This document shows, in pieces, positions 998 through 53,221 of a stretch of 64,000 nucleotides of DNA. Each line of letters begins with the position of its first letter. Positions within the stretch are counted from its first letter, which is position 1. This DNA comes from Eledone cirrhosa (lineage: Eukaryota): contig OZ024742.1 of NCBI GenBank assembly GCA_964016885.1, positions 173,662,001-173,726,000 on the forward strand, given 5' to 3'. The position numbers and the translations under genes were made by a program. The notes under the pieces are model-generated. The model was not told the origin of the DNA. It worked only from the letters and a program-made list of their open reading frames with translations, and made no database searches.

Positions 998-1028
998 ACC
1001 TTCCTCTGTCTCTGTTTAACCTGCCAAC

Positions 1029-4000
1029 ATGGCCGTATTAAGAGTAGGATGTTTAAATGTTCGAGGCCTGGGATCGTCCTGGAAGCAGGTTCCCCTGCTC
1101 AACGACCTCAGGTCTATAGAAATGGACGTAATTTCAGTCAGCGAGACCAGGATCTCCGACACGCGCGCACTAGCCCCCATTTTCGACGACTATCAGATCT
1201 TTGCATCTGTTAGCCGGCCGGTAATGGGAGGCGGGGTGGCAGTGCTGTTTAGGAAAGGCCTGGATCTCGAGGTAAGGTCGATCTTCCGGGACCCGAACGG
1301 GAAGTTGGTGGTCCTGGATGTGAGCAATAATGAAGGTGGTGCCTTTAGACTGGTGGCAGTCTATGCTCCTACCGGGGCAGGACGGACGGACTTATTTAGA
1401 CGCCTGGAAACCTTTCTGGGTACGTCTCGCCCTTTACTGTTAGCGGGGGACTGGAAGGGCATCTTAGACGCACGCTGGGACTGTGTGGGAGTATCCTATA
1501 GGAGCGAGGGGTGCAAAAGCCTCAAGAAACTACTGATCAGCCAGTTCCAACTGTCTGACAGGTACCGACTAGATTTCCTTAATGCGCAGTGTGGACCGGG
1601 GCTAACTGCATAGGGTCATCTAGATCGTATATAGACAGGATATTCATTAGGAAAATTATCAGAAATAGTGTAAGCTGTCCGCGTTTTGAAACGGTCGCCT
1701 ATTCAGATCACAAGTTTGTGATCTGTATGGTCGACCTAGATAAGACGCGTAGGTTAGGACCTGGTTACTGGAAGCTAAACATGTCATTTCCGGCACGTAA
1801 GGCTTACAGGGACCAGGTCAACAATTTAGTTAGGAAAAAGTTGACAGGGGGAGTCGTCAACAATAGATGGTGGGGGGCTCTCAAAAGAGAGATTAGAGTA
1901 ATGTCGATAGAGTTTAGCAAAGAAGTAGCATTAGAGAAAAATAGAAAGGAGGGGGAGTTGGGAGATAAGTTAGACGAGACTATTGGTAGTGGCATTGCAA
2001 CTGATGTGCTAGAGGCGAGAATGGCATTAGACCATTTCTTCAATGCGAAACACGAAGGGTGCATTGTCAGAGCTAAGGCGCGTGCTCTGAGAAACGAGGG
2101 AACCAAAGCTGTTCGATGGGCCCGCGTGGCAGAGGTGCAGCGTGGTAATAAAACAACGATTCGGTCTTTGAAGGACCGAGACGGGCACGAGCTGAGCGAT
2201 TCCAAGAGGTTGTGTGAGGCCTTTCGCCAACATTTTGCTCGGTTGTTCGGGGGAAGTGGCGGCTAAGAGATGGTGGCGGATTTCAGTCCCTACCTCGATG
2301 GCTTGCCGCAACTCTCGATGGCTGACGCTGGGCGCTGCGAAAGGCCAATTACTTCAGCCGAGATTCAGGATAGCCTTGTAGGCTGCATGAGGCGCAAGTC
2401 ACCCGGTTTGGATGGTCTGCCCTACGAGCTTTACGTAAATATGCCAGACTTGTTCTCCAATCTCCTCGAAGCCCTCTACTGCAACTGGCAGCAAAATGGG
2501 AGTATTCCCAGTTCTGTGAGCCGGGGCGTTGTGACGCTGATAAGGAAAGACGAGAACAAGAAGGACACATTAGACAATTTCAGGCCCATAACTCTGCTCA
2601 ACACAGAGTTTAAGATTTTGGCCAGGGTGTTAGCGAAGAGGTTGGCGCTTGTCGTCGGGGATTTGGTTGGGGAGGCGCAAACTTGCGCAATCCCAACCAG
2701 GTCCATACAGGACAACCGCCACCTAATGAGATACATCATAGAGAGGGTAGGGTGTAAACCTGGCTTCGGTGGGGCTCTGATCAATTTAGATCAATCGAAA
2801 ACATTCGATATGGTCGACCATCGGTATATGGAGGCTGTCCTCAAGGCGGCTGGCTTCGGCCCTGTCTTCAGAAGCTGGATCGCTGCAATGCACAGCGGAC
2901 ACTGCTCGATGGTCATAATTAATGGCCACCTCTCGGAACCGTTTCAGGTCTCCGGATCGGTCCGTCAAGGGTGCCCTCTCTCCTCTCTTCTGTACGTATT
3001 GACTCTCGAGCCTTTACTGCGGAAGCTGGAGCTGTTGCAGGGCATCTCGCTCGAACCGGGATACGGAAAGGCTGTGTCGGCTTATGCAGACATCACCGTG
3101 ATGGTGTCGGACCCCTCAGAAATGGAGGTGGTCGGCAACTTATTGGAGGAATATGAAAGGTTGACGGGAGCAAAACTTAACCCGGAAAAGTAAGTAGGCT
3201 TGCAGCCCGACGCATGGAGAGGCATGTCCATGCCGTCCAACAGCGTCGTTAGGCGCGGGACGGACGGACCGCTAAAGTTGCTAGGGGTTTGGTTCGGGCT
3301 AGACCTCCAGGTGGATAAGAATTGGGACGAGATGACGGGCAGGGTAGTCAGTCTCACCCAGAAATGGGCTGGGATGAAGCTGTCACTGAATGGTCAGGCG
3401 GGGGTGGCGAACGCGTACATCGCGTCCGTCAACTACTACTGTCTGACTGTTGTCCCTTGCCCCCGTTCGCGCCTCGCCATCTTGGAGCGGCTCCTCTTCA
3501 AATTCTTGTGAAGGGGTCAGGTTCCGCTGGTGAGGCGGTCCATCAGCTGTCAGCACCCTCTACGTGGAGGGCTGGGCATGCCGTGGCTAATGAGGCGCAG
3601 GCACGCGCTGAGGCTGCGGCATCTCCAGATATTCTGCCTAAACGGTGAACAGGTGTGGTCGCCGTTCATCAGCCGGGCCTTTCCGCAGCTCATTTCTTTG
3701 ACTGGGCTGCAGTCCTGGGTCAAGAAGAGACCGAGACTGGGTGACTGGCATCTGGAATGTTGCCAGGCACTCACTGCCCTCTACCAGGCGGGCAATGCGG
3801 TCAGTGGAACTTCCACTCTCGAGTTCTATAGAGGATTAGTGGTGGCCAAGTGCGACGAAGCACTCGGAGAGGCTCTGGGAGTCAACGAAGTCGAACTAAC
3901 CAGTCTGTACCGGAGGACTTTCGAGCCGGGGACGATGAATAATTTCCAAAAATCCATCGCTTGGCATTGCTACCGGGGGGCACTGCCGGTTCGAGATAAA

Positions 4001-4448
4001 CTCTACAGGCACGGAAGTGCTGTCAGACGGACCTGCCCAAGATGCGCACAGAATAACGAAACCGTTCTGCACGCACTCACCCAGTCTCCGTGCATTACTG
4101 ACTTGTGGAGTTATGTTGAACAGCTGTTGTCGCGTGTAGAACGGATCTGGCTATCGGCCGATTCCATAGTGAAGATCGAACGCCGCCTTCTTTTGGCCAG
4201 GTAGGGCAGGAAATTGTCCTCTGTCTGGTGGCAGTAGCGAAAGAGGTTGTATGGTGGACGAGGTTGAAAGACTGAAGACAGACACTTTTCTCTTCGGGCA
4301 ATCCCTCATCAACTTTTTCAAGTTTCACTTGGAAAGGAATGTGAGGGTGGATAGAGAGGTGCTGCCCCCCAGTACATTTGCTGAAAGGTGGGTGAATGTG
4401 GCGAGAATGGCCCGCGTAAGTGGGCCTACTCTGGTCATGCGGCTATAG
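1029..4448 (+). pseudogene. Tx1-like ORF2 (APE endonuclease-RT-zinc finger), disrupted
   Basis: LNVRGL, SET, AGDW, YIDRI and SDH (APE); KSPGLDG, FRPITLLN, RQGCPLS and AYAD (RT); CPRC..ETVLHAL; split over ORFs 1029-1613, 1589-2266, 2270-3193, 3200-3511, 3530-4204 and 4251-4448 by frameshifts and stops. Confidence 0.9.
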
Positions 4449-4724
4449 GTAGGTAAATTTGAAGAGGAGAGGGGTGCCCTTCTAGGGTGCTCTCGAAGCG
4501 TCGGGTCGTTCAGGACTGGTGGGGTACCTGAGCGAACCCGAGGTGGTCATCCCCCCTATTGGGGAATTTTTTCTTGTTGTAATTTTATTGTTACTTTATT
4601 GTTAATATGTTATTGTTACTTTGTTTATTCATATTGTTTACTCGATTTTTCCGTAAAACCCCACTGTCCCGGTCTTTTGTATTGTCCCCTATATATCGGC
4701 CCTTGTGGCCAATAAATGAAATCG

Positions 4725-4762
4725 TTATTATTATTATTATTACTATAATAATAACAATAATA
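4725..4762. repeat. (TTA)n switching to (TAA)n microsatellite at the Tx1/Dong junction
   Basis: ttattattattattattacta taataataacaataata read directly. Confidence 0.9.
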
Positions 4763-5877
4763 GATGGAATGTTGCTGAACAAAAAGAAATGGATAGGAAG
4801 ACTAGGAAGCTATTGACAATCTACAACATGTTCCACAGAGGAGTGATGTCGATAGACTCTACTTAAGGAGATCTGAAGGTGGAAGAGGTCTTATCAGCAT
4901 AGAGGACTGTGTTCAGATGGAGAAACACAACCTACCCAAATACGTGACCGATAGTAAGGGTCCAATGCTCAGAATTGTGCTGAAGGAGAGGACAATAGAC
5001 AAGTGGATGCCCAAGGAGGAAATAACAAGGAGAAAGAGCAGCCTTCATGAAAAATACCTTCATAGTACCTTCTTTGAGAAAACGGAATTCAGAGATCCAC
5101 AGGCATGGAACTGGTTGAAAAGAGGAGAACTTAAAAAGGCTAGTGAAGGAACGCTAATGGCAGCGCAAGAGCAGGCCCTCAAAACGAAGAGGCTGAAACA
5201 CCATATATACAAGGAGGAGGCTAGCCCACTGTGCAGGATGTGTGGAGAGAGAGAGGAGACTGTGTCTCACATTGTATCCGAGTGTAAACACCTAGCCCAG
5301 ACTCACTATAATCGCTGGAGACATGATGTGATGGCCAAGGTAATCTACTGGCACCTATGCAAAATAAACAATTTACCACATTCTGAGAAGTGGTATGAGC
5401 ATAAGCCAGAGTCGGTGATAGAAAACGATCAGGTGAAGGTTCTGTGGGATTTTAGGACACAAACGGACAAGAAACTGGAACACAATAGACCTGACCTGGT
5501 GGTTTGGGACAAGGGAAAAAGATCGTGCCTGATTGTGGATGTAGCCTGCCCATTCGACACGAGATTGCAAGAGAAGGAGAGGGAGAAAATTAATCGATAC
5601 CAGGACTTAAAGTGGGATGTAAAAAGGATTTGGAACTGCCATGAGGTCAAAGTGGTCCTGATTGTCATAGGCGCACTAGGTACTATCTCAAGGAGTTTCC
5701 AGGGTTGGTTAAAGAAAATTGGCCCCGCCCCGCTTTTGGAACACTTCAAAAGGCATGCTTGCTGGGAACAGCAAGAACACTCCGATACGTCCTGAATATC
5801 TGAGGCTGCAGGTAGTGGATTGATATTCATTTCAACAAACTTTCCAGTTAACTAACATCAATGACTGAGGGTCAAAG
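4762..5877 (+). mobile_element. R4/Dong-like RLE retrotransposon, 5'-truncated copy 1
   Basis: CRMCGEREETVSHIVSEC zinc finger and RPDLVV..IVDVACPFD..KEREK restriction-like endonuclease (ORF 4917-5795); (TAA)n on both sides; homologous to 10670-11790. Confidence 0.9.
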
Positions 5878-5883
5878 AATAAA

Positions 5884-5930
<47 letters not shown>

Positions 5931-5931
<1 letters not shown>

Positions 5932-7050
5932 GTTTTCTTTATTAACCACAAGGGTTCACATAAAGTAGTCATTAAGGACAGTACAGGACAATACAGGACG
6001 GTACAAATGGGCATTTCTGCGTGTAAAAAAACAGAGGTTGAAATAAAATAACAAAGAAAAATTCCCCAATAGGGGGGAGACTTCCAAGGGACATTTATGG
6101 AGAAAGCCCATTAAAAGACCACAGTGGCCCTGACCACCAGGGCAAGTGCCCTCTCCCAGTTTTCCACCTTTAATTTACAGACACATACTCAGAGAAGGCC
6201 CATTCATTCGGGCCATACTTGCTTCTCTCACCCATCTTTCAACAAAATGCTGGGAAGAGAGCACTGCCCTTTCTACCCTGATTTTCATTTTCAAATGAAA
6301 TTTGACAAAGTTAATTAGGGCATCACCGAAGAGGTAAGTGCTCGTCTTCAGCCCTTTCAAACGTGTCCACCATACTATCTCTTTCGCCATGACCACTAGA
6401 CAGATAAAAACTGCCTGCCCTTCCCGGCTAAAGAAAGAGGGAGCGGCAATCCTCACGATGGACTCAGGTCATAGCTGGATTCGTCCTACACGCGACAGCA
6501 GGTGTTCGACATAAACCTACAAGTCAGCAATGCTCGGACATTGGACGAGTGCGTGCCGGAGGGTTTCGTCCCCTGCGCGCATCTCGGACATGCCCGGCTG
6601 ACGGCACCTCCATGACTGTAGAGTTTATCCCGAACAGGCAAAGCTCCTCGGTAGCACTGCCAGGCCAGGGATTTCGGGAAGTTGTCCATAGGCCCCGGCC
6701 CGAAAGTTCTTCCGAGGGTATTGGCTAGTTGAATTTCGTCGACGCCTAGCGTTTCCCCAAGTACGTCGTCGCTCTTACCCTCCACTAATCCTCTATAGAA
6801 CGCCAAGGTGGAGTTTCCACCGATCACATTGCCCGATTGGTCGAGGGCTGTTAGCGCCTGAAGACATTCCGGTCTCAAAGCGCTCCCTCTCGGTTTTCGC
6901 TTGACCCACTACTGCAGCCCCGTCAAGGTTACGAGCCGGGAAAGACGTGTCTAGCAAATGGCGACCACACCTGATCACCGTCGAGCGCGTCCTTTCCACA
7001 AAAAGCGAAAGAGCAAACGCTCCAGCGCAGTCAGGCGGGGCTTAGGACAA

Positions 7051-7052
<2 letters not shown>
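5931..7052 (-). mobile_element. Tx1-like element, 5'-truncated copy 2 (ORF2 C-terminus plus 3' UTR)
   Basis: ORFs 6175-6456 and 6486-6878 match the ORF2 C-terminus; AATAAA near the 3' end; (TAA)n at 5878-5930 and 7053-7093. Confidence 0.9.
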
Positions 7053-7092
<40 letters not shown>

Positions 7093-7094
<2 letters not shown>

Positions 7095-7321
7095 GTGATC
7101 CCGATTGTCATAGGCGCACTGGGGACTATCTCCAAAGGTTTCCAGGGATGGTTAAAGAAAATCGGCCCCTTCACGCTTTTTGGAACGCTTCAAAAGGCAT
7201 GCTTGCTTGGAACGGCAAGAACCCTCCGATACGTCCTGAATATCTGAGGCTGCAGGTAGTGGCTTGATATTCAATCCAACGGACTTTCCAGTTAACCAAC
7301 ATCAATGACTGAGATTCAAGG
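7093..7321 (+). mobile_element. R4/Dong-like element, extreme 3' fragment (copy 2)
   Basis: Encodes VIPIVIGALG..LQKACLLGTARTLR plus the shared 3' UTR; (TAA)n on both sides. Confidence 0.85.
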
Positions 7322-7762
7322 AATAACAATAACAATAATAATAATAATAATAAAGAAGAAGAAGAAAAAGCACATGGTGGATATATATCGTTATGGAATC
7401 GCTCCCGTAAGTTTTTGATTTTTACTTATTTAAAACAACTGTGATAGAATAATTCTTATTAGAAATGACGTATAAGATTACAGTTTGTTACGCTCAGCAA
7501 GCCATAACGCATCACTCTAAGGCATAGGGCCCCAATATTTAATATTTAATTTTGGATCAGAAATGTTATAGTCGAAAAAGATGAAAGTGGCAAAATGACT
7601 AAATAGCTAAATGGCTAAGTGGACAGACAGGCAAATAATTCACCGCCAACACCACCACCGCCACCATCAGCACTGCCACGCGAAAAACTCTAGTCGAGCT
7701 ACCTCAACTTCTATTTCTACTTCAACTTCAACACCATCACTACCGTACTACCACCACGACAT

Positions 7763-7906
7763 CACCACCACCACTGCCTCATTATCGCTAGCGCCGCTAT
7801 TCTCTCCCACTACCCCCTGCTAGGTACTACTAGCAAAGCACCACCAACCACCACCACTGCCTCATTATCACTACCGCCGCTATTCTCTCCCACTACCTCC
7901 TGCTAA
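7763..7906. repeat. Two-copy duplication of a ~60 bp CAC-rich motif
   Basis: caccaccactgcctcattatc..ccgctattctctcccactacc..ctgcta appears twice, ~83 bp apart. Confidence 0.7.
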
Positions 7907-8180
7907 GACATGCATCGTAGTGTCCCCACTAAAAGAGGAAGGCATCAAAAGATATAAATAGACTGATTTGATGACCCGGTCAGAAAATCAAAAAAACAAA
8001 AATCAAAATCAAAACAGCACAGCAACAACGAAAAACGTAAAGAAAATAAAAATAAAAGAAAAACAAACAGTCAGACAGAGAAGGAAAAAAAAACTAAGTC
8101 AGACATTCAAACATTACATTACAATGAAACTTATGCTTATTCTTTTTTTTTCTTACCTATTTGTTTGTTTGTTTATTTAT

Positions 8181-11100
8181 GTTCGTCTACAGCGTGATAG
8201 TGCCACACTAAAATCACCGGGGGTGGTGATGAAATCACCGGTGGTTATGTAACCATGCATTCACCAATCCTGGATAAGAGTGTTTAAATGTCGAACCTAA
8301 ACAGTTCGAATAACGGTGAAGTGGAGACTGGAATGTCATGTGACAGACTCTCACCCAGCAGGTGCTCCCTGGCTCAGCAGCAGGGAACTGGCTGTCAACC
8401 AAATACTGCTGGTGTCGGAGGAAGCAGAAGAAGGAAAGGGACCAGAACCAACTGGACGAAACAATTGAATAGAACTGTTATACTATGTTACCTGAAGATT
8501 AACCCCAAGGAGAAAGGCTATAGGAAACGGATGCATAACATCTGAAACGAGATTGGTCTATTTAAATTAGATGACCAAAAACTGGCCGTGCAGGCTTGGG
8601 TAATAAGAACCAATGGGTGGATAAGCGAGCTGGAACTGGAGGAACTGAGCAGAGAGATTAGGTTGAAAATGGAGGGTGGAGTATGCCAGGCAAACGAGCC
8701 ATTGGGAAATGAAGGTGAAGAGGTTGAGAGAACGGAGGAACCATCCGAAGCAGACAATGATCAGAATGCTGAAATAAATAATACCTGGAACAAAGATACG
8801 GCCATTGAGGAGATGAATGCTGGCGGGTTAGGACAAGATTTAGTTGATATCCTCAACTTAGTGGTAGACGAATTGAACAATGATAGTGGGAAACCTATGA
8901 ACCTAAGATTTGTAGACAGGAAAAAGTTAAAAGAAACAACAGCTAAGGTAAACGAAGTCATCCCATAACTCGAGGCGAGGAGACTTCACCGGTGCAACAA
9001 TATCCTCAAAGCAACAGAAAATGCGGTGAGGAAATTACTTGGCATAAAAGCGAGAGGAAACCACAAACAAGAGAGATCAGAACATTGGTGGAAGAAATGA
9101 CTGAATGGTCAAATCAGGGAAATGAGAAATTACACTGGAAAGCTTGAGTCCCTGCTGAATGCGACACTAAAAAACATAGACACTAAAAATAGACTGGAAA
9201 TAAAGTACAAAACTAGGAGGAAAAAGCTAAATATTATCATAGAGGAACTGAAGCAACGCATTATAGCAAAGAGTGCAAATATTAGGCGATACGAGAGCAG
9301 AGTCAGTCAGTATAGACAGAACCGCCTGTTTGACAACAACCAGAAGATGTTGTTTGGACAGCTTGAAGGGAAAGAAAGAGGCAACGATGTGATCCCTGAG
9401 GCGGAACAAACTTAGACATTCTGGAGAGGAATATGGGAGCAGGATGTTAAACATAATGACCAGGCAGTGTGGATTGAGACAGTACAAAAGGAGATTAGTG
9501 AACAGGCACACCAACAAACTGATTTGAGTATCACAGTTGAAACTCTTAAGGGGCAGGCCAAACATCTAACCAACTGGAAATCACCAGGCCCAGATGGTGT
9601 GCAGGGGTATTGGATTAAAAATATAACATCCCTCCACCCGAAACTGACAACCATGTTCAATGACTGCTTGATGTCAGGTGGGGTCCCAGAGTGGTTTAGA
9701 AAAGGTACCACAGTTCTGGTAATGACAGACCGAATCAAGGGTAATGATGTTACCAACTATAGACCTATCACATGTCTGTCCGTAATGTGGGAAACTGTTG
9801 ATAAGCATTATGTCTGAGAAAATCTACCATCACCTCCAAACAACAAACAACTTGTTACCGGACGAACAGAAAGGATTCCGAAAGAAGTCACCTGGTACAA
9901 AGGACCAGTTACTTATTGATAAGATGGTAATGAGGAATTGCAAGAGGAAACACACTGGTCTTGCCATGGGATGAATAGACTACAAAAAGGTATTTGACAT
10001 GGTTCATCATTCTGGGATCACCAAAAGCCTGGAGATCTTCAAGGTGGCAGATAACATCAGACAGTTGTTGGGCAAAAGTATGAAGTCCTGGGAAACAGAG
10101 TTAACATCAACCGGAGAATCCTTGGGAAGCGTGAAGATCAAGAGAGGTATCTTCCAGGGAGATAGTATGTCCCCTCTGTTGTTTGTGCTTGCCCTGATAC
10201 CCCTGACCAGTGTACTGCGAAAAGTGAGAGCAGGATACAGGTTGGGAAAGGGAGGGCTTACCATCAATCACTGCTCTTCGTGGACGATCCTAAGCTTTTC
10301 GGGAAGAGTGAGAAGGAGTTGGATGTGCTTGTTGACACTGTCCGTATTTTCAGCAATGATATATGTATGCAATTTGGTATTAGTAAGTGTGGAGTCATTG
10401 AGATGAAGAGGGTAAGCTGAGCAGAAGTAACGGAATCCAGGTACCAACAGGTGAGATGATAAAGGAAATTGACTCTGAAGAAGGATACAAGTATGTGGGA
10501 GTTCTGGAGGGTGATGACATCAAGAACAAAAAAATGAAGGAATTGATAAGAACTGAATACATTCGGAGAGTAAGGAGCGTATTAAAGTCACATCTGAACA
10601 GTAGGAATGCCATAAGTGCAGTAAATTCCCGAGCTGTGTCTATTATTAGGTACAGTGCGGGAATTCTGAGATGGAATATGCTGAACAAAAAGAAATGGAC
10701 AGGAAGACTAGGAAGCTATTGACTATATACAACATGTTCCACAAGAGGAGTGATGTCGATAGACTCTACTTAAGGAGATCTGAAGGTGGAAGAGGGCTTA
10801 TCAGCATAGAGGACTGTGTTCAGATGGAGAAAAACAACCTACACAAATACGTGACTGATAGTAAGGAGCCAATGCTCAGAACTGTACTGAAGGAGGGGAC
10901 AATAGGCCAAGGGATATCCAAGGAGGAAATTACATCAAGGAGAAAGAGCAGCCTTCAGGAAAAATCCCTTCATAGTACCTTCTTTCAGAAAACTGAATTT
11001 AGAGATCCACAGACATGGAACTGGTTGAATAGAGGAGACCTTAAAAAGGCTACAGAAGGAATGTTAATGGCAGCGTTGGAGCAGGCTCTCAAAAGGAAGT

Positions 11101-11790
11101 GGTTGAAACACCATATTTACAAGGAGGAGGCTAGCTCACTGTGCAGGATCTGTGGAGAGAGAGAAGAGACTGTGGCTCACATTGTATCCGAGTGTAAACA
11201 CCTAGCCCAGACTCACTATAAGGGATGGAGACACGATGTGATGGGTAGGGTGATCCACTGGCACCTATGCAAAGTAAATAATTTACCACATTCTGAGAAG
11301 TGGTATGAGCATAAGCCAGAGGTGGTGATAGAAAACGATCAGGTGAAGGTGCTGTGGGATTTTAGGATACAGACGGACAAGAAACTGGAACGCAATAGAC
11401 CTGACCTGGTGGTTGTGGACAAAGAAAAAACATCGTGCCTGATTGTGGATGTGGCCTGCCCATTCGACACGAGAGTGCAAGAGAAGGAGAGGGAGAAAAT
11501 TAACCGATACCAGGATTTAAAGTGGGAGGTAAAAAGGATTTGGAACTGCTATGAAGTCAAAGTGATCCCGATTGTCATAGGCGCACTAGGGACTATCTCA
11601 AAAAGTTTCCAGGGATCGTTAAAGAAAACTGGCCCCTTCACACTTTTTGGAACGCTTCAAAAGGCATGCTTGCTGGGAACAGCAAGAACACTCCGATACG
11701 TCCTGAATATCTGAGGCTGCAGGTAGTGGCTTGATATTCATTTCAACAAACGTTCCAGTTAACTAACATCAATGACTGAGACTCAAAGAG
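8181..11790 (+). mobile_element. R4/Dong-like RLE retrotransposon, near full-length copy 3 (single ORF 8288-11714, disrupted)
   Basis: WKSPGPDG, NYRPITCL, RGIFQGDSMSP, degenerate FVDD, CCHC finger and PD-(D/E)xK endonuclease; several stops and frameshifts; ends in (TAA)n at 11791-11847; 5' boundary approximate. Confidence 0.9.
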
Positions 11791-11805
11791 TAATAACAAT
11801 AATAC

Positions 11806-11849
<44 letters not shown>

Positions 11850-12091
11850 TTTTCTTTATTAACCACAAGGGTTTACATAAAGTAGACATTAAGGACAGTA
11901 CAGGACAATACAGGACGGTACAAATGGGCATTTCTGCGTGTAAAAAAACAGAGGTTGAAATAAAATAACAAAGAAAAATTCCCCAATAGGGGGGAGACTT
12001 CCGAGGGACATCTGTGGAGAAAGCCCATTAAAAGACCACAGTGGCCCTGACCACCAGGGCAAGTGCCCTCTCCCAGTTTTCCACCTTTAAT

Positions 12092-14758
12092 TTACAGACA
12101 CATACTCAGAGAAGGCCCATTCATTCGGGCCATACTTGCTTCTCTCACCCATCTTTCAACAAAATGCTGGGAAGAGAGCACTTCCCTCTCTACCCTGATT
12201 TTCCATTTCAAATGAAATTTGAAAAAGTTAATTAGCGCATCACCGAAGAGGTAAGTGCTCGTCTTCAGCCCTTTCAAACGTGTCCACCATACTATCTCTT
12301 TCGCCATGGACACCAGACAGATAAAAACTGCCTGCCCTTCCCGGCTAAAGGAAGGGGGCGGGGCAATCCTCACGATGGACTCAGCTGATAGCTGGATCCG
12401 TCCTACACGTGTCAGCAGGTGTTCGACATAAACCCACAAGTCAGTAATGCTCGGACACTGGACGAGTGCGTGCAGGACGGTTTCGTCGCCATGTGCGCAT
12501 CTCGGACATTCCCGGCTGACGGCACCTCCATGCCTGTAGAGTTTATCCCGAACTGGCAAAGCTCCTCGGTAGCACTGCCAGGCCAGGGATTTCTGGAAGT
12601 TGTCCATAGGCCCCGGCCCGAAAGTCCTTCCGAAGAGATTGGCTAGTTGATTTTCATCGACGCCTAGAGTTTCTCCAAGTACGTCGTCGTTCTTCCCCTC
12701 CACTAATCCCCTATAGAACGCCAAGGTGGAGTTTCCACCGATCACATTGCCCGATTGGTCGAGGGCTGTGAGCGCCTGAAGACATTCAAGCCTCCAAGCG
12801 CTCCCTCTCGGTCTTCGCTTGACCCAGGACTGCAGCCCCGTCAAGGAGACGAGCTGGGGAAAAACGTGTCTAGCAAACGGCGACCACACCTGATCACCGT
12901 CGAGGAAGAGGTGGAGATGTCGTAGCCTGAGCGCGTGTCTGCGCATCATCAGCCACGGCATGCCCAGCCCTCAACGTAGCGGGTGTTGACAGCAGATGGA
13001 CCGCCTGACCAACGCTCCAGCGCAGTCAGGCGGGGCTTAGGACAAGATACGACGGACAGGTGGTAGTAGCTGACGGATGCGATGTACGCATTCGCCACCT
13101 CCGCTCGACCTTTCAGGGATAGCTTCCTCTCGGCCCATTTCTGGGTGAGAGAAGCCACCTTCCTCGTCACCTCGTCCCAGTTTTTGTCCGTCTGGAGGTC
13201 TGGACCGAACCAGACCCCTAGCAATTTAACTGGTCCGTCCGTCCAGCGCCCGACGACGCTGTTGGACGGCATGGACCTGCCTCTCCAGGTGCCGAGCTGC
13301 AGGCCCACTGACTTTTCCTGGTTGATCATTGCTCCTGTCACCGCTCCGTATTCTCTTAGTGTAGTGCCGATCGCTTCGATGTGTTTGGCGTTCGACACCA
13401 CTACGGTGACATCGTCCGCATATGCTGACACGGATCTTCCGCATCCTAGTTCGCGCGGGACCCCCCCTCAACGTCTCCAGTTTGTGCAGTAATGGCTCGA
13501 GAGTCAATACGTACAATAGGACGAGAGGGGACATCCTTGGCGGACCGAGCGCATGATGTTGAACGGTTCCGAAAGGTGACCGTTCACTCTCACTACAGAG
13601 CAGATGTCGCTGTGCATGGCAGCGATCCAGCCTCTGAAGACGGGCCCAAAGCCAGCCGCCCTCAGGACTGCCGCTAGGTACCGATGGTCGACCCTATCGA
13701 AGGCTTTCGATTGATCTAAATTGATCAAAGACCCACCCTTGCCAGGTTCCCTAGCTACCCTCTCTACGATGTATTGCATGAGGTGGAGGTTGTCGTGGAT
13801 AGATCTGTCGGGAATGGCGCATGTCTGTGCCTCTCCCACCAGACCACCAACGACAAGCGCCAACCACTTTGCTAGCACCTTGGCCAAAATCTTGAACTCT
13901 GTGTTTAGCAGAGTTATGGGCCTAAAATTATCTATGTTATCCCCCTTGTTCGGATCCTTTCTCAGCAGCGCCACCGCTCCTCGGCTCACAGAGCTGGGAA
14001 TTCTCCCGTTCTGTTGCCAGTTGCAGTAGACGTCCGCCAAGAGGCCTCCGAACAAGTTTGGAATGTGTACGTAAAGTTCATAGGTCAGACCATCCAAACC
14101 AGGCGATTTACCCCTTGTGCAACTAGTCATTGCATCCCGTACTTCAGCGGTTGTTATCGGCTTTTCGCAACACTCCGCCTCAGTGACCGAAAGCCGCGGC
14201 AGTCCGTCGAGGTAGACACTAAAGTCCATCCCTCGATCCGGCCCGCCACTGCCCCCGAACAGTTGAGCGAAGTGTCGCTGAAAAGCTTCACACATTTGCC
14301 CGGGATCGAGTAGCATGCGCCCGTCGTGGTCCACCAGTCGCCCACTAACACTAAAGAGCGGGACGTTCCAAGAAAGGTCTCCAGACGCCGGAAGAAATCA
14401 GGCCGCCCTGCTCCTGTCGGGGCATAGACGGCCACTAACCTGAAAGCTTGCCCGTCTCCGCTGGTCACGTCCAGCACCACCAACTTACCTTCTGGGTCCA
14501 GGAAGATGGCCCGTATGGCAAGATCCAAATCTCTCCGAAATGCACAGCAACTCCTCCCCCCGATCCCGAACGGCTGGGAGATGCGTACACATCGTAGCCG
14601 CCGAAGATCGGTGCGAAAGCCTGTGCTTCGGAGATTCTGGTCTCGCTGATGGCCACTACATCTATGTTTAGTGACCTGAGGTCGTTGAGCAGGTGGCCCT
14701 GCTTCCATGACGACCCCAAGCCACGCGCATTTATGCTGCCTATTCTGAGTGAGGTCAT
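12092..14758 (-). pseudogene. Tx1-like ORF2 of copy 3, disrupted
   Basis: ORFs 14465-14758, 14154-14792, 13504-14334, 12949-13431 and 12092-12961 are collinear with ORF2 of copy 1. Confidence 0.88.
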
Positions 14759-14792
14759 GTTGAAAAGGAGTGGAAAAGATGGGAAAGACCAC

Positions 14793-16782
14793 TTACCTTA
14801 CTTCTCGTAGGGGAAGGACGGTTTTTCCATCCTTTTCACTGCTTGTGGCCTCCTCAGGAAGGATGTCCTTATAAATCCTCCTGGAGAGTGCTTGTCGGAA
14901 GTCTCCGATGTCTTTGGGGAATTTTTGTTTTAGTGTCATGTACGTTTTCTGTGTGATGCGAGTGATTTGTATGTGTGGAGGTGGTGTGAATTTTGGGGCG
15001 TTGTGTAGTCTTTTTCTGTGATGCTGGTGTTGTGTTGGATGTAGTGTAATAATTGCTTGTTGTTCAAATTTAATGCTGTGTAGTGTGTATCGTTTTGGTT
15101 GTTTTGTTTTGTTTGCGTTTGTTGTGGGTTTGTTTCTGTTTCGCATTTTGGTGACTTTTGTGGTGTAGGTGATGGTGGTGTTGGAGTTAATGATCGTGAT
15201 GGTGTTGGTGTTTGGGTTGATGGGGTTGGTGATGCTGGTGTGGATGGTGGCATATCTGTCCTAACTTTTTTGTTTCTTAGTTTATTTGTTTCCCTCTGTA
15301 TTTTGTTTTTGGAGGGGGAAGGAAGAGAATTTTTTCTTTTTTGGTTTCTTTTTTTTTTCCGGATATCGTTTCCCACTCCTCGTCGTCACAATCTGTCTCC
15401 AGTTGTGATAGGCCGGGTAGTGGAAAATCCTCCACAGCCGTTAGTTTTGGTTGTGGTGCGGTGGATGGTGTAGGCGCTAGTGCTAGTTCTGAAGCGTTGG
15501 GTGGTGGTGGGGTTGGTTTTGCTGGTGGTGGTAGTGGTGTTGGTTTTGCTACTGTTGCTGGGGTTGTTGCTGTTATAGTTGCTTCTGTTGTTGCTGCTAC
15601 AGTTGTTGCTGCCATCTCTGCTACTGGTGGTGTTGATGGTTGTGTCACTGGGGTGGGTAGGAGAGGTGGCCTCAACCTTTTAGCCTGAGGGCAGAAAGCC
15701 CTTAGGTGGGTTCCTTCACCACAAACGACACACCTAGGTCTTCTGCCCTCGACAATTACCGTGAGGTGGCTGCCGTCAGTGAGGTCTATTACCTCTGGCA
15801 TCTCCTCAATGCTTTTTTGGTCCGCTTGGATCAGGAGCTCCATCCCAGATCCGGACCAGTTTTCCTGCTTTTCTTTTGCTATTGCTATTATTTTCGTGTT
15901 GGCTTCGATGCCGGCGAGGACAGCCGCTATTAGCCAGGGAATTTCGATGGCCGGTGGAGCGTGGGTCACCCTGATCTTTACGAGTCTCTGGCCACAATAG
16001 CTTGGGACGAGTGTGAAGTCGTCACTTTTTAATGGGGCCATGGAGTGTTCTCTAGCTTCCTCTGGTGTTTCAAAGAACACATCCACGGTTCCATACTTTT
16101 GCCCACGTCTGATGTGCGTTTTTCTTGCCCACACATGTCCCAAAGCTTTTTGGATTTGGGACTCGGATGCCCGTTCCACTCGGCGCGATTTTACATTTAT
16201 TGTTCTATACGACACGGTGCATAGGCGCCGATGCTCCATTTTATTAGGTGGGGGGTGAGGCTGACCCTGTACCCATCTTTCTTTACCATTTGTTTGGCAT
16301 TTTCTAAATCCTCTTGAGTTACCGTGAACGCTTCGAATTGTTTTGCTACGATGGCGAAACTGAGGGTCGGTTCTATAATGTCATTGTTGTTGTTGTTGCT
16401 AACGTTATTTGTGTTAATCTTAATTTTAGTTTCAGTTGTGGTGGTGGTGACGTCAGTCGTCTTTGGTGCGGAAGAGTCCATTTTGCTTGATTTCATTTCG
16501 ACATCACGAGTTAATTTATTTTTTTCTTCTTTTGTTTCTGTTGTCGCGGTGGTGGTGGGGGTGGTGGTTGTCGCGGTGGTGGTGGTGGTGGAGGCTTTAA
16601 CACCTGCAGTCATTGGTAATGGCGGGAAATGAATGTCTGCCTGAGACAAATTTAAAATATTGCTACTGCTTATATTTTTTTGTGTTGGCAAACGTAGTAA
16701 CATTTACAATGGTGGTGTCGGTGTGAGGTGTTATTTTGTGAGGAAGGCTTTCAGCTGCTTCGTGCAGAGGGGAATTAGCCAT
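14793..16782 (-). pseudogene. Tx1-like ORF1 of copy 3, frameshifted
   Basis: ORFs 16197-16703, 15277-16239 (knuckle), 14936-15376 and 14793-15146; probable ATG at 16782. Confidence 0.75.
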
Positions 16783-17038: not shown

Positions 17039-17537
17039 TTAGTAATGAACGAAAGATATATACTTTATATCATCTCTATTTATTTCCTTCTATATATTTC
17101 GAAGATGCAAAGTGTTATGTATAACATAAAGCAAAATATGTCCTCCTCAGACAAATAGGTAGAAATGTACAATTTGTTCCTGATATGCTGGTAGAGAAAC
17201 GAACTGGATAGATTGAGGACCGCCAGTCATATGACTAGAAAAACCTCAGCACTTAAGGGTGTTACGTGATTAGGTGGAAAACATTACATTATATGAATGG
17301 AAAAAATGAAACGAAATTTCATTTCCCACTCTTAGTACGGCTGTTACTTAAATATAAGTATGTATACGTACATACATATATGTATCCAGACGTACAGTAA
17401 TGCACACCTATATATATGTACGTATGGATTCACCAAACATTTATGATAATGCTCGGTGTATTTGTAAACAAACATCCCGTATTAAGCCGCAGTGTCTAGC
17501 AACCACCGTTGCTCGTTTGTCCAACACTGACAAAGGA

Positions 17538-17580
17538 ACGCTGTACTAGTTTCAAGCTTGTTAGATATCGTCAGCAACGT
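17538..17580 (-). ncRNA. Type I hammerhead ribozyme, family A (stem II mismatch)
   Basis: Reverse complement: ACGUUG CUGACGA U AUCU AACA AGCU U GAAA CUAG UA CAGCGU. Confidence 0.7.
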
Positions 17581-17966
17581 ATACCTTCCTGCCAGTTTGT
17601 TGAACGTCCGAAAGTATATACTTTCCTTATGCATATTAACGGCTGAGTAGCCCAATTTGCATATCGAGTGGGTTAATCGGCCAGGAGCACCGGAAACGAT
17701 AAATGGAAAAAAATGAAACGAAATTTCATTTCCCACTCTTAGTACATCTGTTACTTAAATATAAGTATGTATACGTACATACATATATGTATACAGACGT
17801 ACAGTAGTATGTATATATATATACATACATGCACACATATATATATGTACGTATGGATTCACCGAACATTTATTATAATGCTCGGTGTGTTTGTAAACAA
17901 ATATCCCGTATTAAGCCGCAGTGTCAAGCAACCACCGTTGCTCGTTTGTTCAACATTGACAAAGGA

Positions 17967-18009
17967 ACGCTGTACTAGTTTCAAGCTTGTTAGCTATCGT
18001 CAGCAACGT
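17967..18009 (-). ncRNA. Type I hammerhead ribozyme, family A, intact
   Basis: Reverse complement: ACGUUG CUGACGA U AGCU AACA AGCU U GAAA CUAG UA CAGCGU; palindromic stem III ACUAGU; stem I extends AAGG/CCUU and GUUCAACA-type/UGUUGAAC. Confidence 0.85.
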
Positions 18010-18382
18010 ATACCTTTCTGCCAGATTGTTGAATGTCCGAAAGTATATACTTTCCTTATGCATATTAACGGCTGAATAGCGGAATTTGCATATCAGTGGG
18101 TTAATCGCTCGGGTGCACCGAAAATGATAAATGGAAAAAATGAAACGAAATTTCATTTCCTGTACGTCTGTATACATATATGTATGTACGTATACATACT
18201 TATATTTAAGTAACAGCCGTACTAAGAGTGGGAAATGAAATTTCGTTTCATGTTTTCCATTTATCGTTTTCGGTGCACCCGGCCGATTAACCCACTCGAT
18301 AAGCAAATTGGGCTACTCATCCGTTAATATGCATAAGGAAAGTATATACTTTCGGACGTTAAACAATCTGGCAGTAAGTTAT

Positions 18383-18425
18383 ACGTTGCTGAGGATAGGT
18401 AACAAGCTTGAAACTAGTACAGCGT
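18383..18425 (+). ncRNA. Type I hammerhead ribozyme, family A (stem II mismatch)
   Basis: acgttg ctgagga t aggt aaca agct t gaaa ctag ta cagcgt. Confidence 0.7.
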
Positions 18426-18804
18426 TCCTTTGTCAGTGTAGAACAAACGAGCAACGGTGGTTTTAGACGCTGCGGCTTAATACGGGATGTTTGTTTACAA
18501 ACACACCGAGCATTATAATAAATGTTTGGTGAATCAATACGTACATATATATAGGTGTGCATGTATGTATATATATATATATACATACTACTGTACGTCT
18601 GTATACATATATGTATGTACGTGTACATACTTATATTTAAGTAACAGCCGTACTAAGAGTGGGAAATTAAATTTCGTTTCATTTTTTCAGTTTATGGTTT
18701 CCGGTGCACCCGGCCGATTAACCCACTGATATGCAAATTGGGTTACTCAGCCGTTAATATGCATTAGGTAAGCATATACGTTCAACAATCTGGCAGGAAT
18801 GTAT

Positions 18805-18847
18805 ACGTTGCTGACGATAGCTAATAAGCTTGAAACTAGTTCAGCGT
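18805..18847 (+). ncRNA. Type I hammerhead ribozyme, family A, intact (GUU site)
   Basis: acgttg ctgacga t agct aata agct t gaaa ctag tt cagcgt. Confidence 0.82.
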
Positions 18848-19224
18848 TCCTTTGTCAGTGTTGAACAAACGAGCAACAGTGGTTGCTAGACACTGCGGCT
18901 TAATATGGGATGTTTGTTTACAAACCCACCGAGCATTATAATAAATGTTCGGTGAATCCATACGTACATATATATATGCGTGTATGTATGTATATATATA
19001 TACATACTACTGTACGTCTCTATACATATATGTATGTACGTGTACATACTTATATTTAAGTAACAGCCGTACTAAGAGTGGGAAATGAAATTTCATTTCA
19101 TTTTTTCCGTTTATCGTTTTCGGTGCACCCTGCCGATTAACCCACTCGATTTGAAAATTGGGCTACTCAGCCGTTAATATGCATCAGGTAAGTATATATG
19201 TTCAACAATCTGGCAGGAAGGTAT

Positions 19225-19267
19225 ACGTTGCTGACGATAACTAATAAGCTTGAAACTAGTACAGCGT
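19225..19267 (+). ncRNA. Type I hammerhead ribozyme, family A (stem II mismatch)
   Basis: acgttg ctgacga t aact aata agct t gaaa ctag ta cagcgt. Confidence 0.72.
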
Positions 19268-19468
19268 TCCTTTGTTAGTGTTGAACAAACGAGCAACGGT
19301 GGTTGCTTGACACTGCGGCTTAATACGGGATATTTGTTTACAAACACACCGAGCATTATAATAAATGTTCGGTGAATTCATACGTACATATATATATGTG
19401 TGCATGTATGTATATATATATCCATACTACTGTACGTCTGTATACATATTTGTATGTACCTGTACATA

Positions 19469-19543
<75 letters not shown>

Positions 19544-19649
19544 GTGTGTGTGTGCGTTGTATGTTTTGTTATTTTTGCAAATGTTGGATATAGAAACATT
19601 TACCCACTCTTAGTACATCTGTTACTTAAATATAAGTATGTATACGTAT

Positions 19650-24929: not shown

Positions 24930-25009
<80 letters not shown>

Positions 25010-25215
25010 TATCTATACGTACATACATATATGTATACAGCCGTACAGTAGTATGTATATATATACATACATGCACATATATATATATGTCTACCGTCTA
25101 CCTTCCTGCCAGATGATTGAACGTCTGAAAGTATATACTTTCCTTATGCTCAGCCGTTAATATGCATAGGGAAAGTATATACTTTCAGATGTTCAATCAT
25201 CTGGCAGGAAGGTAT

Positions 25216-25258
25216 ACGCTGCTGACGATAGCTAATAAGCTTGAAACTAGTACATCGT
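25216..25258 (+). ncRNA. Type I hammerhead ribozyme, family A
   Basis: acgctg ctgacga t agct aata agct t gaaa ctag ta catcgt (one stem I mismatch). Confidence 0.75.
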
Positions 25259-25730
25259 TCCTTTGTCAGGGCAGCGATGGTTGCTAAACACTGTACGGCT
25301 TAATTAGGGATGTTTGTTTAGAAACAAACCTAGCATTATAATAAATGTTCGGTAAATCCATACGTACATATATATGTGTGCATGTATGTATATATATATA
25401 CATACTACTGTACGTCTGTATACATATATGTATGTACGTATACATACTTATATTTAAGTAACAGCCGTATTAAGAGTGAAAAATGAAATTTCGTTTCATT
25501 TTTTCCATATATATATATGTATATATATATATATACATACAGGTACACATACATATATGTACGCGTCAGTTTAGCGGACGCCTATTATAGCGCCCGCTTT
25601 GTTCGTTTGTAAACAAACTGAACAGCCTGAATTTATGCCGCACGGTGTTAAGGCAACCACGTCACCTTTTTGTTCAACACTGACACAGGAACGATGTACT
25701 AAACTGATGCGTACATATATGTATGTGTAC

Positions 25731-25878
<148 letters not shown>

Positions 25879-26117
25879 GCATGCTACTGTACGTCTGTAT
25901 GCATATATGTATGTACGTATACATACATACTTACATTTAAGTAAGTGCCGTACTAAGAGTGAGAAATGAAATTTCGTTTTCATTTTATTACAACTCATCG
26001 TTTTCGGTGCGCCTGACCGATTTAACTCACTCGATATGCAAATTAGGCTGCTAAGCCGTTAATTTTCATAAGGAAAGTATATACTTTCGAGCGTTCAACT
26101 ATCTGGCAGATGGGTAT

Positions 26118-26160
26118 ACGGTGCTGATGATAGCTAACAAGCTTGAAACTAGTACATCGT
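26118..26160 (+). ncRNA. Type I hammerhead ribozyme, subfamily B, intact
   Basis: acggtg ctgatga t agct aaca agct t gaaa ctag ta catcgt. Confidence 0.87.
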
Positions 26161-26311
26161 TCCTGTGTCAGTGTTGAACAAAAAGGTGACGTGGTTGCCT
26201 TAACACCGTGCGGCATAAATTCAGTCTGTTCAGTTTGTTTACAAACGAACAAAGCAGGCGCTATAATAAGCGTCCGCTAAACTGATGCGTACATATATGT
26301 ATGTGTACCTG

Positions 26312-26349
<38 letters not shown>

Positions 26350-26586
26350 TGCTACTGTACGTGTGTATACATATATGTATGTACGTATACATACATACTT
26401 ACATTTAAGTAAGTGCCGTACTAAGAGTGAGAAATGAAATTTCGGTTTCATTTTATTACAACCCATCGTTTTCGGTGCGCCTGACCGAATCTAACTCACT
26501 CGATATGCAAATTAGGCTGATCAGCCGTTAATTTTCATAAGGAAAGTATAAACTTTTGAACGTTCAACTATCTGGCAGATGGGTAT

Positions 26587-26629
26587 ACGGTGCTGATGAT
26601 AGCTAACAAGCTTGAAACTAGTACATCGT
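26587..26629 (+). ncRNA. Type I hammerhead ribozyme, subfamily B, intact
   Basis: Identical motif to 26118-26160. Confidence 0.87.
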
Positions 26630-26780
26630 TCCTGTGTCAGTGTTGAACAAAAAGGTGACGTGGCTGCCTTAACACCGTGCGGCATAAATTCAGGCTGTTC
26701 AGTTTGTTTACAAACGAACAAAGCGGGCGCTATAATAAGCGTCCGCTAAACTGATGCGTACATATATGTATGTGTACCTG

Positions 26781-26820
<40 letters not shown>

Positions 26821-26935
26821 TGCTACTGTACGTCTGTATACATATATGTATGTACGTATACATACTTACATTTAAGTAAGTGCCGTATAAGAGTGAGAAA
26901 TGAAATTTCGTTTTCATTTTATTAGAACTTATATA

Positions 26936-27816: not shown

Positions 27817-27861
27817 ATATACATATATATATATAGTGGTAGAAAACTGGAAGGTAATACC

Positions 27862-28048
27862 CGTAGTGGTAGAGCACTCAGTCCATGGGACGAGTTATGT
27901 AGAAGTGGTTACACAATAGTTAGTTAACCATACCGAGAACAATTGTTTCACCTTAGCGGATCCTCAGCTTGGAAACTGATTACGAGCTGAGGATCCGCTA
28001 AGGTGAAACAATTGTTCTCGGTATGGTGAACTGAGTGCTCTACCACTT
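27862..28048. repeat. Short fold-back carrying two back-to-back minimal hammerheads (family D): - at 27934-27970, + at 27983-28020
   Basis: cgag ctgagga t cc gctaa gg t gaaa caattg tt ctcg and its near-perfect reverse complement; outer arms agtggtagagcactcag/ctgagtgctctaccact. Confidence 0.75.
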
Positions 28049-28163
28049 CTCTCTCTCTCCTATATATATATATATATATATATATTACGAAGGAAAGGTG
28101 GTAAGGAACCAGGTGGACCATAACGCACCAATATACTCAATACCTAGGGTAGTAGAGTGGGTA

Positions 28164-29340: not shown

Positions 29341-29350
<10 letters not shown>
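28621..29350. repeat. Fold-back with ~310 bp arms (28621-28930 / 29024-29350)
   Basis: Arms are reverse complements (ORFs 28721-28906 + and 28990-29247 - are near-identical); contains ctgatga..gaaaccatgtt core-like motif. Confidence 0.85.
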
Positions 29351-29371
<21 letters not shown>

Positions 29372-29377
<6 letters not shown>

Positions 29378-29835
29378 TAACAGATTAAAGTTTAAGCAAA
29401 GAATCGCTGCTTTCACCCTTAACGGGATCTTCTGAAACTAACAAAGTCAATCTGTAATCGCAGAGCTGGATATTTCAAAAACCGTTGCAACCGGAGGAAG
29501 ACAGGAAGACGATACTTTGGTTCGTGGAAACGTTCGCTGGCAAAGAACGGGAAAGAACGAATAACACGTCATTAATAGGAGCGGTGAAAAACAATTACGC
29601 GCAAAGACAGAACCACGTTTATGGTATAAAAGAGGTCATAGACTAATGTTCTCTTAGGTGGTGCATAGAGACGTTCTCTGGCAATGAACGAAAAAACGAA
29701 GATAATACGTCATATTTGGTGCGTGGAGAACAATAGCACGCAAAGACACAACCACGTAAATGGTATAGCAGAAGTCGTAGACTAAAATTCGAGCCCTCTT
29801 TGGATTTTAGTCTTCAAATTAATTATTATTACTAT
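29372..29835 (-). mobile_element. Solo Penelope pLTR-like element (family E), inverse homolog of 55080-55500; internal ~140 bp tandem; hammerhead-like motif at 29381-29454
   Basis: Reverse complement: cagattga..agttt CAGAAGA t ccc gttaa ggg t GAAA gcag cgattct ttgc TT aaact ttaatctg; partial third copy at ~35903-35956. Confidence 0.7.
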
Positions 29836-30235
29836 ATATATATAGATATATATTGTGTGTGTGTGAATGGGAAATACCAAAGATCATTTATTGAAAGTCT
29901 CTGGATATGTATACTTTTTATTAGAGAAGGTAAAACAGTATACTATTTCACAATGATGTAAACATTCAATTATAACATTCTGTATTAATATTTAGTATTG
30001 CTGTATACTGCCAGTAATATGTACAGTATATATATATAGACTATAATTAATAAAAAAAAAATACACACCTTTTTCCGTACAAATTTGATTTCACTGTTTT
30101 GTTTTCACTTATGTATTTTTTTAACATGTTATTTATTTATAATACAAATTATATGATAGCATTCTATATGTGGGTGGGCCCCATTCATCTCCTGGCAACC
30201 AATATTTTTAGACCCAGTCCGCCACTGAATATATG

Positions 30236-39669: not shown

Positions 39670-39752
<83 letters not shown>

Positions 39753-45143: not shown

Positions 45144-45484
45144 CATACATACATATATATATTTGAGTGTGTGTGCGTGTGTGTACGGAAAGTAAACGGA
45201 TACAATGAATCAAATCACACCACACAATGAAGATATATATTAGTTTAATACTTGAAATACGAGGAAAAATGTCTTAACCATTTGGAGGCTAGCCATTCGT
45301 CACGAGATGGAATGGGAAATAAAAGAAATACAAAAATAGAAAGTGAGATGAGGAAGGAAGAGACAAAATATATCATTTGAGATAAACCACGTCTTTCCAG
45401 TCAGCCATTTTGAGGAAACACACACTCAGGCGCAGATATATAATTCTATGTATATATGTGTGTGTGTATATATATATATATATA

Positions 45485-46045
45485 AACGGAAAAATGAAAC
45501 GAAATTTCATTTCCCACTCTTTGTACGGCTGTTACTTAAATATAAGTATGTATACGTACATATATATATGTATACAGACGTACAGTAGTATGTATATATA
45601 TATATATATACATACATGCATACATATATATATGTACGTATGGATTCACCAAACATTTATTATAATGTTCAGTGAGTTTGTAAACAAACATCACGTAATA
45701 AGCCGTAGTGTCTAGCCAACATCTTTGCTCGTTTGTTCAACACTGACAAAGGAACGCTGTACTAGTTTCAAGCTTGTTAGCTATAGTCAGTAACCTTCCT
45801 GCCAAATAGTTGAACGTCCGAAAGTATATACTTACCTTATACATATTAACGGCTGAGTAGCCCAATTTGCTTATCGAGTGGGTTAATCGGCCGGGTGCAA
45901 GCTCACAAGCTTGAAACTAGTACAGCATTCCCTTGTCAGTGTTGAACAAATGAGCAACGGCGGTTGCTAGACACTACGGCTTAATACGGGATGTGTGTTT
46001 ACAAACACACCGAACATTATAATAAATGTTTGCTAAATCCATACG
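45485..46045. repeat. Family A unit (-, hammerhead core mutated at ~45754-45792) fused to a partial + unit
   Basis: Homology to the 17297-17700 unit; ctgacta replaces ctgacga; + fragment begins at ~45901 inside stem II. Confidence 0.8.
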
Positions 46046-46273
46046 TACATATATATATGTGTGCATGTATTTATATATACATACTACTGTACGTCTGTAT
46101 ACATATTTATATATATATATATGAGTGTGTGTGTGGTGTGTGTGTGGGGGGGGGGGGTGCGTGTGTGTATGTGTATGTGTGCGTGTGTATGTGCAAATGG
46201 CTATATAAATCCATATTCAATGTGCTTTCGGACTATAAACCTGATGTGTTTTAAATATTCACATATATTCTTT

Positions 46274-52797: not shown

Positions 52798-53016
52798 TAT
52801 ATATATATAGTAAGTGTGTGTGTATACGTACATACATATATGTATACAGACGTACAGTAGCATGCATATATATATATACTATATATACATACAGGTACAC
52901 ATACATACATGCACGTATCAGTTTAGCGGACGCTTATTATAACGCGGCTTTGTTCGTTTGTAAACAAACTGAACATCACCCCTTTTTTTTTTTTTTTAGT
53001 TCAAACTGACACAGGA

Positions 53017-53059
53017 ACGATGTACTAGTTTCAAGCTTGTTAGCTATCATCAGCACCGT
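53017..53059 (-). ncRNA. Type I hammerhead, subfamily B, in a solo unit at 52825-53140
   Basis: Reverse complement is identical to 26118-26160. Confidence 0.85.
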
Positions 53060-53221
53060 ATACCCATCTGCCAGATAGTTGAAGTAAGTGCCGTATTAAG
53101 AGTGAGAAATGAAATTTCGTTTTCATTTTATTTCAACTTATATATATAGTAATAATAATAAATTTGAAGACTAAAATACAAAGAGGGCTCGATAAGGATA
53201 AATATATATCAAATATATAAG

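Follow-up and report, generated by a model that had tools for sequence, protein, structure and literature searches.

The locus at 17293-19475 raises the question of what kind of element a non-coding repeat of about 420 nt with one hammerhead motif per unit represents, and how its copies came to be arranged as they are. The whole stretch of DNA analysed, 64,000 nucleotides in length, is referred to here as the window. Our analysis indicates that the locus is probably an insertion of a non-autonomous Penelope-like element (PLE), that is, a non-LTR retrozyme, which is likely to have been copied by the reverse transcriptase (RT) and GIY-YIG endonuclease of an autonomous PLE, probably one of the Hydra clade.

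A motif scan identified five CUGANGA cores in the locus, three on the plus strand (+18389, +18811 and +19231) and two on the minus strand (-18003 and -17574). In each of these, GAAA lies 14 nt after CUGANGA and is followed by CUAG, UH and a proximal stem I of 6 bp. Stem II consists of a U-U pair, 4 bp and a tetraloop, and stem III is a single pair closed by CUAG. The canonical metazoan type I hammerhead is described with a helix I of 6 bp, a helix II of 4 bp, a helix III of 1-2 bp and a palindromic loop (PMC4209133). The five cores fit this descriptor, with self-cleavage a prediction, and the retrozyme reading first made from the sequence alone agrees with it. That sequence-only reading had also given all five units an AGCU/AGCU stem II; the five cores with GAAA, CUAG and 6-bp stem I were recovered, and stem II is intact in two of the five (18811+ and 18003-) with one mismatch in each of the other three. 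Four of the five cores therefore depart from the consensus, three by the stem II mismatch and one (18811+) by a U at position 17, and only -18003 is fully consensus in core, stem II and proximal stem I. Cuts are predicted on the plus strand after 18419, 18841 and 19261, the positions already proposed, and on the minus strand between 17973/17972 and 17544/17543, which would give monomers of 422, 420 and 429 nt.

The same scan of the 64-kb window returned nine hammerhead matches with a stem I of at least 6 bp, eight of which come from the 420-nt family, and returned matches in 0 of 30 block-shuffled windows. Rfam gave 0 matches at the gathering score and none of its 117 E-value matches was a hammerhead family; its microRNA matches were TA-hairpin noise, far below gathering scores. 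Thus, the hammerhead identification rests on the motif and the published descriptor (PMC4209133). A 31-nt core pattern had 0 matches among the metagenome and viral contigs searched.

The extended stem I proposed earlier is well supported, since 92.7% of 232 cells are paired across eight copies, compared with 33-42% when the pairing is slid. In the same eight copies, with their palindromic CUAG loop, helix I is paired in 100% of cells and helix II in 90.6%. The 420-nt monomer has a GC content of 37% and is highly self-paired (folding z of -6.2), stem I pairing one end with the other. The palindromic stem III had been argued to favour double hammerheads between neighbouring units, and in four of four adjacent pairs the double-hammerhead fold is predicted to be more stable than two single folds by 6-13 kcal/mol. 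Against this structure, folding without constraints gives energies 7-14 kcal/mol below that of the double hammerhead. The units have no ORF in common, and the 20 ATG ORFs of 40-102 aa are interrupted at different sites in each unit, so the earlier statement that there is no coding capacity holds.

Core positions mutating as fast as their flanks had been named as grounds for refutation, and the copies do not show this. Across seven copies, 0 of 15 columns of the core and palindrome vary compared with 97 of 258 other gap-free columns (Fisher P=0.0015), the latter count being somewhat inflated by a loosely aligned stretch in subfamily B. Position H17 is A or U, and all 11 fixed core positions (C3-A9, G12-A14 and A15.1-U16.1) are invariant in the seven aligned copies. 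Two stem I pairs are altered on both sides between subfamilies, from U-G to G-U and from A-U to U-G; this covariation represents a single subfamily split, and the count of two-sided pairs was matched in 376 of 500 shuffles. In the sequencing runs, 19228 T>G and 19264 G>T are each common, and at that pair U-A, a third state, is found in a copy from organism B. Among the 40 of 88 variant rows listed for the runs, the free position N7 is the one core position to vary, a weak test that is not significant by itself, with about one core variant expected by chance.

BLAST and alignments resolve the locus into two arms placed head to head, with their truncated 5' ends meeting at 18159/18160 and a total span of 17293-19475 (Table 1). 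The original description as an array over 17297..19649 remains correct for the plus-strand units of about 420 nt, which are in tandem (TRF period 420, 3.1 copies). It does not hold for the inverted minus-strand units, and its right end took in a separate 52-nt fragment. Reading the locus as a plain array also missed the departures in four of the five cores, the two variants among the units, the dispersed high-copy mobile family and the PLE footprints.

Table 1. Features of the locus at 17293-19475 and the other insertions of the same family in the window; hammerhead cuts are predicted.
Feature	Position	Strand	Description
Inverted 5'-truncated arm	17293..18159	-	Partial unit, full 429-nt unit, partial unit; long 3' end at unit position ~273
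59-nt tail	17293..17351	-	Stretch between the short and long 3' ends, on the inverted arm only; X1 equivalents 19055 and 19114
Type I hammerhead	17519..17605	-	Cut predicted between 17544 and 17543; stem II mismatch
Type I hammerhead	17948..18034	-	Cut predicted between 17973 and 17972; consensus core, stem II and proximal stem I
Forward arm	18160..19475	+	Partial unit, two full units (422 and 420 nt), partial unit; short 3' end at unit position ~214
Type I hammerhead, extended stem I	18358..18444	+	Cut predicted after 18419; G-G mismatch in stem II
Type I hammerhead	18780..18866	+	Cut predicted after 18841; U at position 17, stem II intact
Type I hammerhead	19200..19286	+	Cut predicted after 19261; private G>A at 19240 in stem II
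(TA)36 tract	19471..19542	.	Adjoins the short end; presumed insertion target
Detached 52-nt unit fragment	19597..19648	-	98% identical to unit 17544-17972, with its two-base variant
Second family insertion, head-to-head	25003..25510	.	Short end left and long end right, both in (TA)n; core +25222
Subfamily B insertion, 469-nt unit	25516..26930	.	Two intact cores (+26124 and +26593) within 26075-26665; long end lies in (TA)n; inverted arm stops within the internal TA tract
Head-to-head insertion, damaged cores	45482..46110	.	Long end left; right arm stops ~20 nt before the short end
Subfamily B head-to-head insertion	52810..53138	.	Core -53053; short end left, long end right

The 420-470-nt repeat is a high-copy, dispersed, non-coding family in an animal genome. 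Counting the locus itself, there are five insertions in the 64 kb, which belong to two subfamilies; subfamily B (25.5-26.9 and 52.8-53.1 kb) has a 469-nt unit that is 75-78% identical to the first. In run X1, which may be the source sample, the unit was matched by 10,532 of 17,142,217 contigs. In run X20, a second sample with the same species label, it was matched by 73,254 of 12,467,656 reads, and the rows listed for this run contain opposite-strand and tandem joints and not the 19055 and 19114 ends. Under two further species labels the family is again present, with 6 contigs in X4 and 13 in X5; both runs come from the 16 of 19 holder rows in the run search that had shares of at most 0.20. 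The holders listed in that search included no RNA run, which says nothing for or against expression.

Several features of these insertions are those of PLEs, whose copies carry an inverted 5'-truncated copy at the 5' end, a tail of 30-40 bp at one end and partial tandems (PMC8557442). First, the layout is head-to-head in all five loci, with variable junction positions, and exactly one long end (~273) occurs in every locus. Secondly, an exact short end (~214) is found on the other arm in three of the five, and the remaining two stop earlier in TA-rich sequence. Third, nine of the ten arm ends run into TA repeats. The tenth is the left end of the inverted arm, which stops at 17293-17296 beside a short AT-rich stretch and not (TA)n, and this counts against the PLE reading. 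Lastly, among the rows listed for X1 (19 of 539), loose contig ends that continue as (AT)n lie at 19055 (32 contigs) and 19114 (28 contigs), 59 nt apart and at the same two places as the ~214 and ~273 ends in the window. Both unit positions are at predicted hairpins. Nine of the 15 joints listed in the runs are opposite-strand, several of them supported by one or two read starts. The 59-nt tail of the locus exceeds the 30-40 bp usually cited for PLEs. For an anole PLE, in vitro work showed nicking and extension of both strands in AT-rich DNA, and a tail equal to the gap between two internal RT start sites on the RNA (PMC11167929).

Two assignments were rejected. The element is not itself an autonomous PLE, as it has no RT and GIY-YIG ORF, and a plant LTR retrozyme (type III hammerheads in LTRs, with a 4-bp target duplication) is ruled out by the type I topology, the tandem units and the lack of an LTR pair.

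Hydra-clade PLEs are described with a CxCX5C linker, hammerheads and (TA)n targets (PMC8557442). A tblastn search with P0001, which carries the RWK and DKT motifs of this clade, identified three PLE remnants in the window, two of which carry CxCX5C before GIY-YIG. At 48100-52603, one remnant shows the short-end/long-end footprint in (TA)n that also marks the 420-nt family. This decayed Hydra-clade-like PLE retains RT and GIY-YIG remnants and CxCX5C; its inverted pLTRs are 98.8% identical and minimal hammerheads occur at -48183 and +52418. (TA)n lies to either side, and one arm carries a tail of roughly 100 nt beyond the end of the other. The intervals 53149-55502, 29345-29853 and 57888-60540 contain two further PLE remnants together with short copies of their ends flanked by (TA)n, and hammerhead scans of these intervals found none. 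An autonomous element with a homologous end was not found in the 64-kb window, where the best match (E 0.016) was AT-rich chance similarity, and neither the PLE remnants nor the two other small hammerhead families of the window have sequence in common with the 420-nt unit.

The copies could instead be 5'-truncated pieces of an autonomous PLE with tandem hammerhead repeats in its 3' region, with no independent small element. Their footprints are the same as those of the ORF-bearing PLEs of the window, one of which (53.1-55.5 kb) carries a tandem repeat of 139 nt close to its 3' end, and conservation of the core could come from autonomous parents. However, 0 of the five loci continue in line into ORF sequence, with arms of up to 1.1-1.3 kb, and the unit hammerhead is canonical, whereas metazoan PLE pLTRs are reported to carry mostly minimal variants, as does the PLE core at 52418. 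We therefore consider this origin unlikely.

The units of the array differ in their history. The markers G19042, T19189, an 8-nt deletion and T19245 are present in units from about 18620 onward and absent from the minus arm and the first plus unit, and both marker states occur commonly in X1; A, for example, accounts for 62% of the depth at 19042 and 42% at 19189. Since the units carry markers of two common family variants, the array was not made from one circle, and a single circle copied round and round was rejected as the source of the whole. Each segment also has 1.6-4.8% private changes, which marks an old locus in decay. Uncommon variants of the inverted unit 17544-17972 recur at the right end of the array (19262-19475) and in the detached piece; two variants are common to the two units, one of them rare in X1. 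This suggests local conversion or a shared template.

Such mosaic units would also be expected if a PLE-derived unit were dispersed as monomers or partial dimers and arrays arose later in the DNA by unequal exchange or gene conversion, with the hammerhead as a passenger and without circular RNA. Local tandem amplification has been proposed (bioRxiv 10.64898/2026.07.22.740005), and hammerhead cleavage is dispensable for insertion of the anole PLE in vitro, where hammerhead mutants still insert (PMC11167929). This account is nevertheless quite improbable when set against the invariant core, the covariation of stem I across subfamilies 75-78% identical, the exact PLE ends retained by multi-unit arms, and the abundant circles reported from related retrozymes in mussel, coral and axolotl (PMC7229834). 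A MITE- or Helentron-like DNA element or plain satellite with a hammerhead-like motif by chance is scarcely credible, for while the unit has internal palindromes and a TA microsatellite and lacks an Rfam hammerhead match, shuffled windows yielded no such motif, the motif is selectively conserved, and the inversion junctions differ by locus while the 3' ends are fixed, which is not as terminal inverted repeats would give.

Under the preferred reading, a non-autonomous PLE copied by the enzyme of an autonomous one, the following sequence of events may be proposed. Tandem copies would be transcribed, and neighbouring hammerheads, paired with each other by way of the palindromic stem III, would release RNA of unit length. 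The long stem I would hold the monomer ends together for a host ligase, as reported for other retrozymes. The PLE protein would then nick both strands of a TA tract, and reverse transcription would start inside the unit, at about 273 on one strand and about 214 on the other. The two start sites would produce two arms joined at their truncated 5' ends, with the tail on one of them. Since an arm can cross as many as three cut sites, a single linear monomer would not serve as template, and a circle or an uncut multimer would; the data are compatible with either. Two family variants probably contributed to the array in at least two rounds of growth, followed by decay of about 2-4%. More tentatively, hammerheads may supply a circular RNA on which the PLE-type enzyme primes, on both strands of the TA target, at two internal sites and then rolls through the junction, a possibility that we rate below even chances.

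Other repeats of the window were also recorded. An unrelated type I hammerhead family occurs at 55657-56232 and 43670-43987 (cores +55981 and -43920). The copy at 55657-56232 lies between (TA)n tracts; it is a near-perfect head-to-head pair whose tail measures about 58 nt. A third hammerhead family is represented at 27836-28060 by a 225-bp head-to-head mini-element with core +27987, a palindromic loop III, unequal ends and (TA)n tracts on both sides. These two small families, although unrelated, share the head-to-head and unequal-end plan with the 420-nt family. Two more hammerhead-like cores, at -61517 and -63538, have long stem II regions. At 39750-42134, a unit of about 690 bp is present in tandem and inverted copies, 94% identical and flanked by TA repeats, and looks like another PLE-type insertion; units of about 150 bp at 34530-35270 are in tandem with short TA tracts between them. 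The scan found no hammerhead in either of these regions. Nested decayed LINEs, L1/Tx1-like and in both orientations, occupy 1000-16400, and within them a stretch of 2.2 kb is duplicated (4762-6985 and 10669-12904, 93% identity) and bears the end of a LINE of the restriction-like endonuclease type. The named relatives of the LINE proteins are distant and come from shrimp, anole and coral; the repeats may resemble those of octopus. Finally, a tRNA-Ser-like sequence at 35584-35656 (ARAGORN), possibly a SINE head, is unrelated to the retrozyme family.

Taken as sequence evidence, the repeat would be a new family of the known metazoan non-LTR retrozymes, and its insertion footprints support mobilisation by PLEs. 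The retrozyme class and the PLE link are already published, and the mobilising enzyme of animal retrozymes has so far been argued from co-occurrence and pLTR homology. Here a canonical-hammerhead retrozyme itself carries PLE-specific integration marks. These favour PLEs as the mobilising elements, and in particular the Hydra clade with its (TA)n targets. In the literature searched, with Repbase and subscription papers outside its scope, neither this family nor PLE tails on a retrozyme are reported. The two fixed ends would be defined priming sites, so that circle and uncut multimer become testable in the existing in vitro PLE system. If priming on circular RNA is true, the insertions would offer a first direct footprint of circles from animal retrozymes being used as transposition templates.

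The metazoan non-LTR retrozymes of Cervera and de la Pena (2020) have units of 350-390 bp in mussel and 330/350 nt in axolotl, and the present unit is slightly longer (420-470 nt) (PMC7229834). Both have non-coding tandem units, one canonical type I hammerhead in each and a self-paired monomer. A one-pair helix III with a palindromic tetraloop is also found in axolotl HHR_Amex1 and a U-U at the base of helix II in HHR_Amex2; unlike those retrozymes, the present family combines these weakening features in one motif (PMC7229834). Head-to-head arms, a tail and a (TA)n target are not described in the available text of that paper, in which 'inverted' and 'microsatellite' occur 0 times. Metazoan retrozymes are known there as RNA circles, whereas this family is known from DNA (PMC7229834).

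Several PLEs resemble the family in turn. For example, Hydra-clade PLEs (Craig et al. 2021) have in common with it the (TA)n insertion, hammerheads, inverted 5'-truncated copy, one-end tail and partial tandems; the family differs in having no RT or GIY-YIG ORF, a 59-nt tail and no homology to the PLE remnants of the window (PMC8557442). The non-autonomous Chlamys PLEs, such as MRC1, are likewise multicopy head-to-tail insertions of a non-autonomous PLE. However, they are from green algae and have 3' sequence in common with known autonomous partners (PMC8557442), whereas no partner of the family was found in the 64-kb window. Poseidon of Anolis (Frangieh et al. 2024) also has two fixed ends downstream of the hammerhead cut site, AT-rich targets and extension of both strands, but it is autonomous with a mechanism shown in vitro, whereas that of the family is derived from genomic ends (PMC11167929). 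Among vertebrate retrozymes, co-occurrence and pLTR homology were the basis of the case, drawn from 35 genomes that included no mollusc, and eight of nine frog retrozyme dimers did not cleave in vitro (bioRxiv 10.64898/2026.07.22.740005). The main text of this preprint has no tail, target-site or head-to-head analysis, and its supplements may list further families. It reaches the same conclusion as the one favoured here, that animal retrozymes are non-autonomous PLE sequences (bioRxiv 10.64898/2026.07.22.740005).
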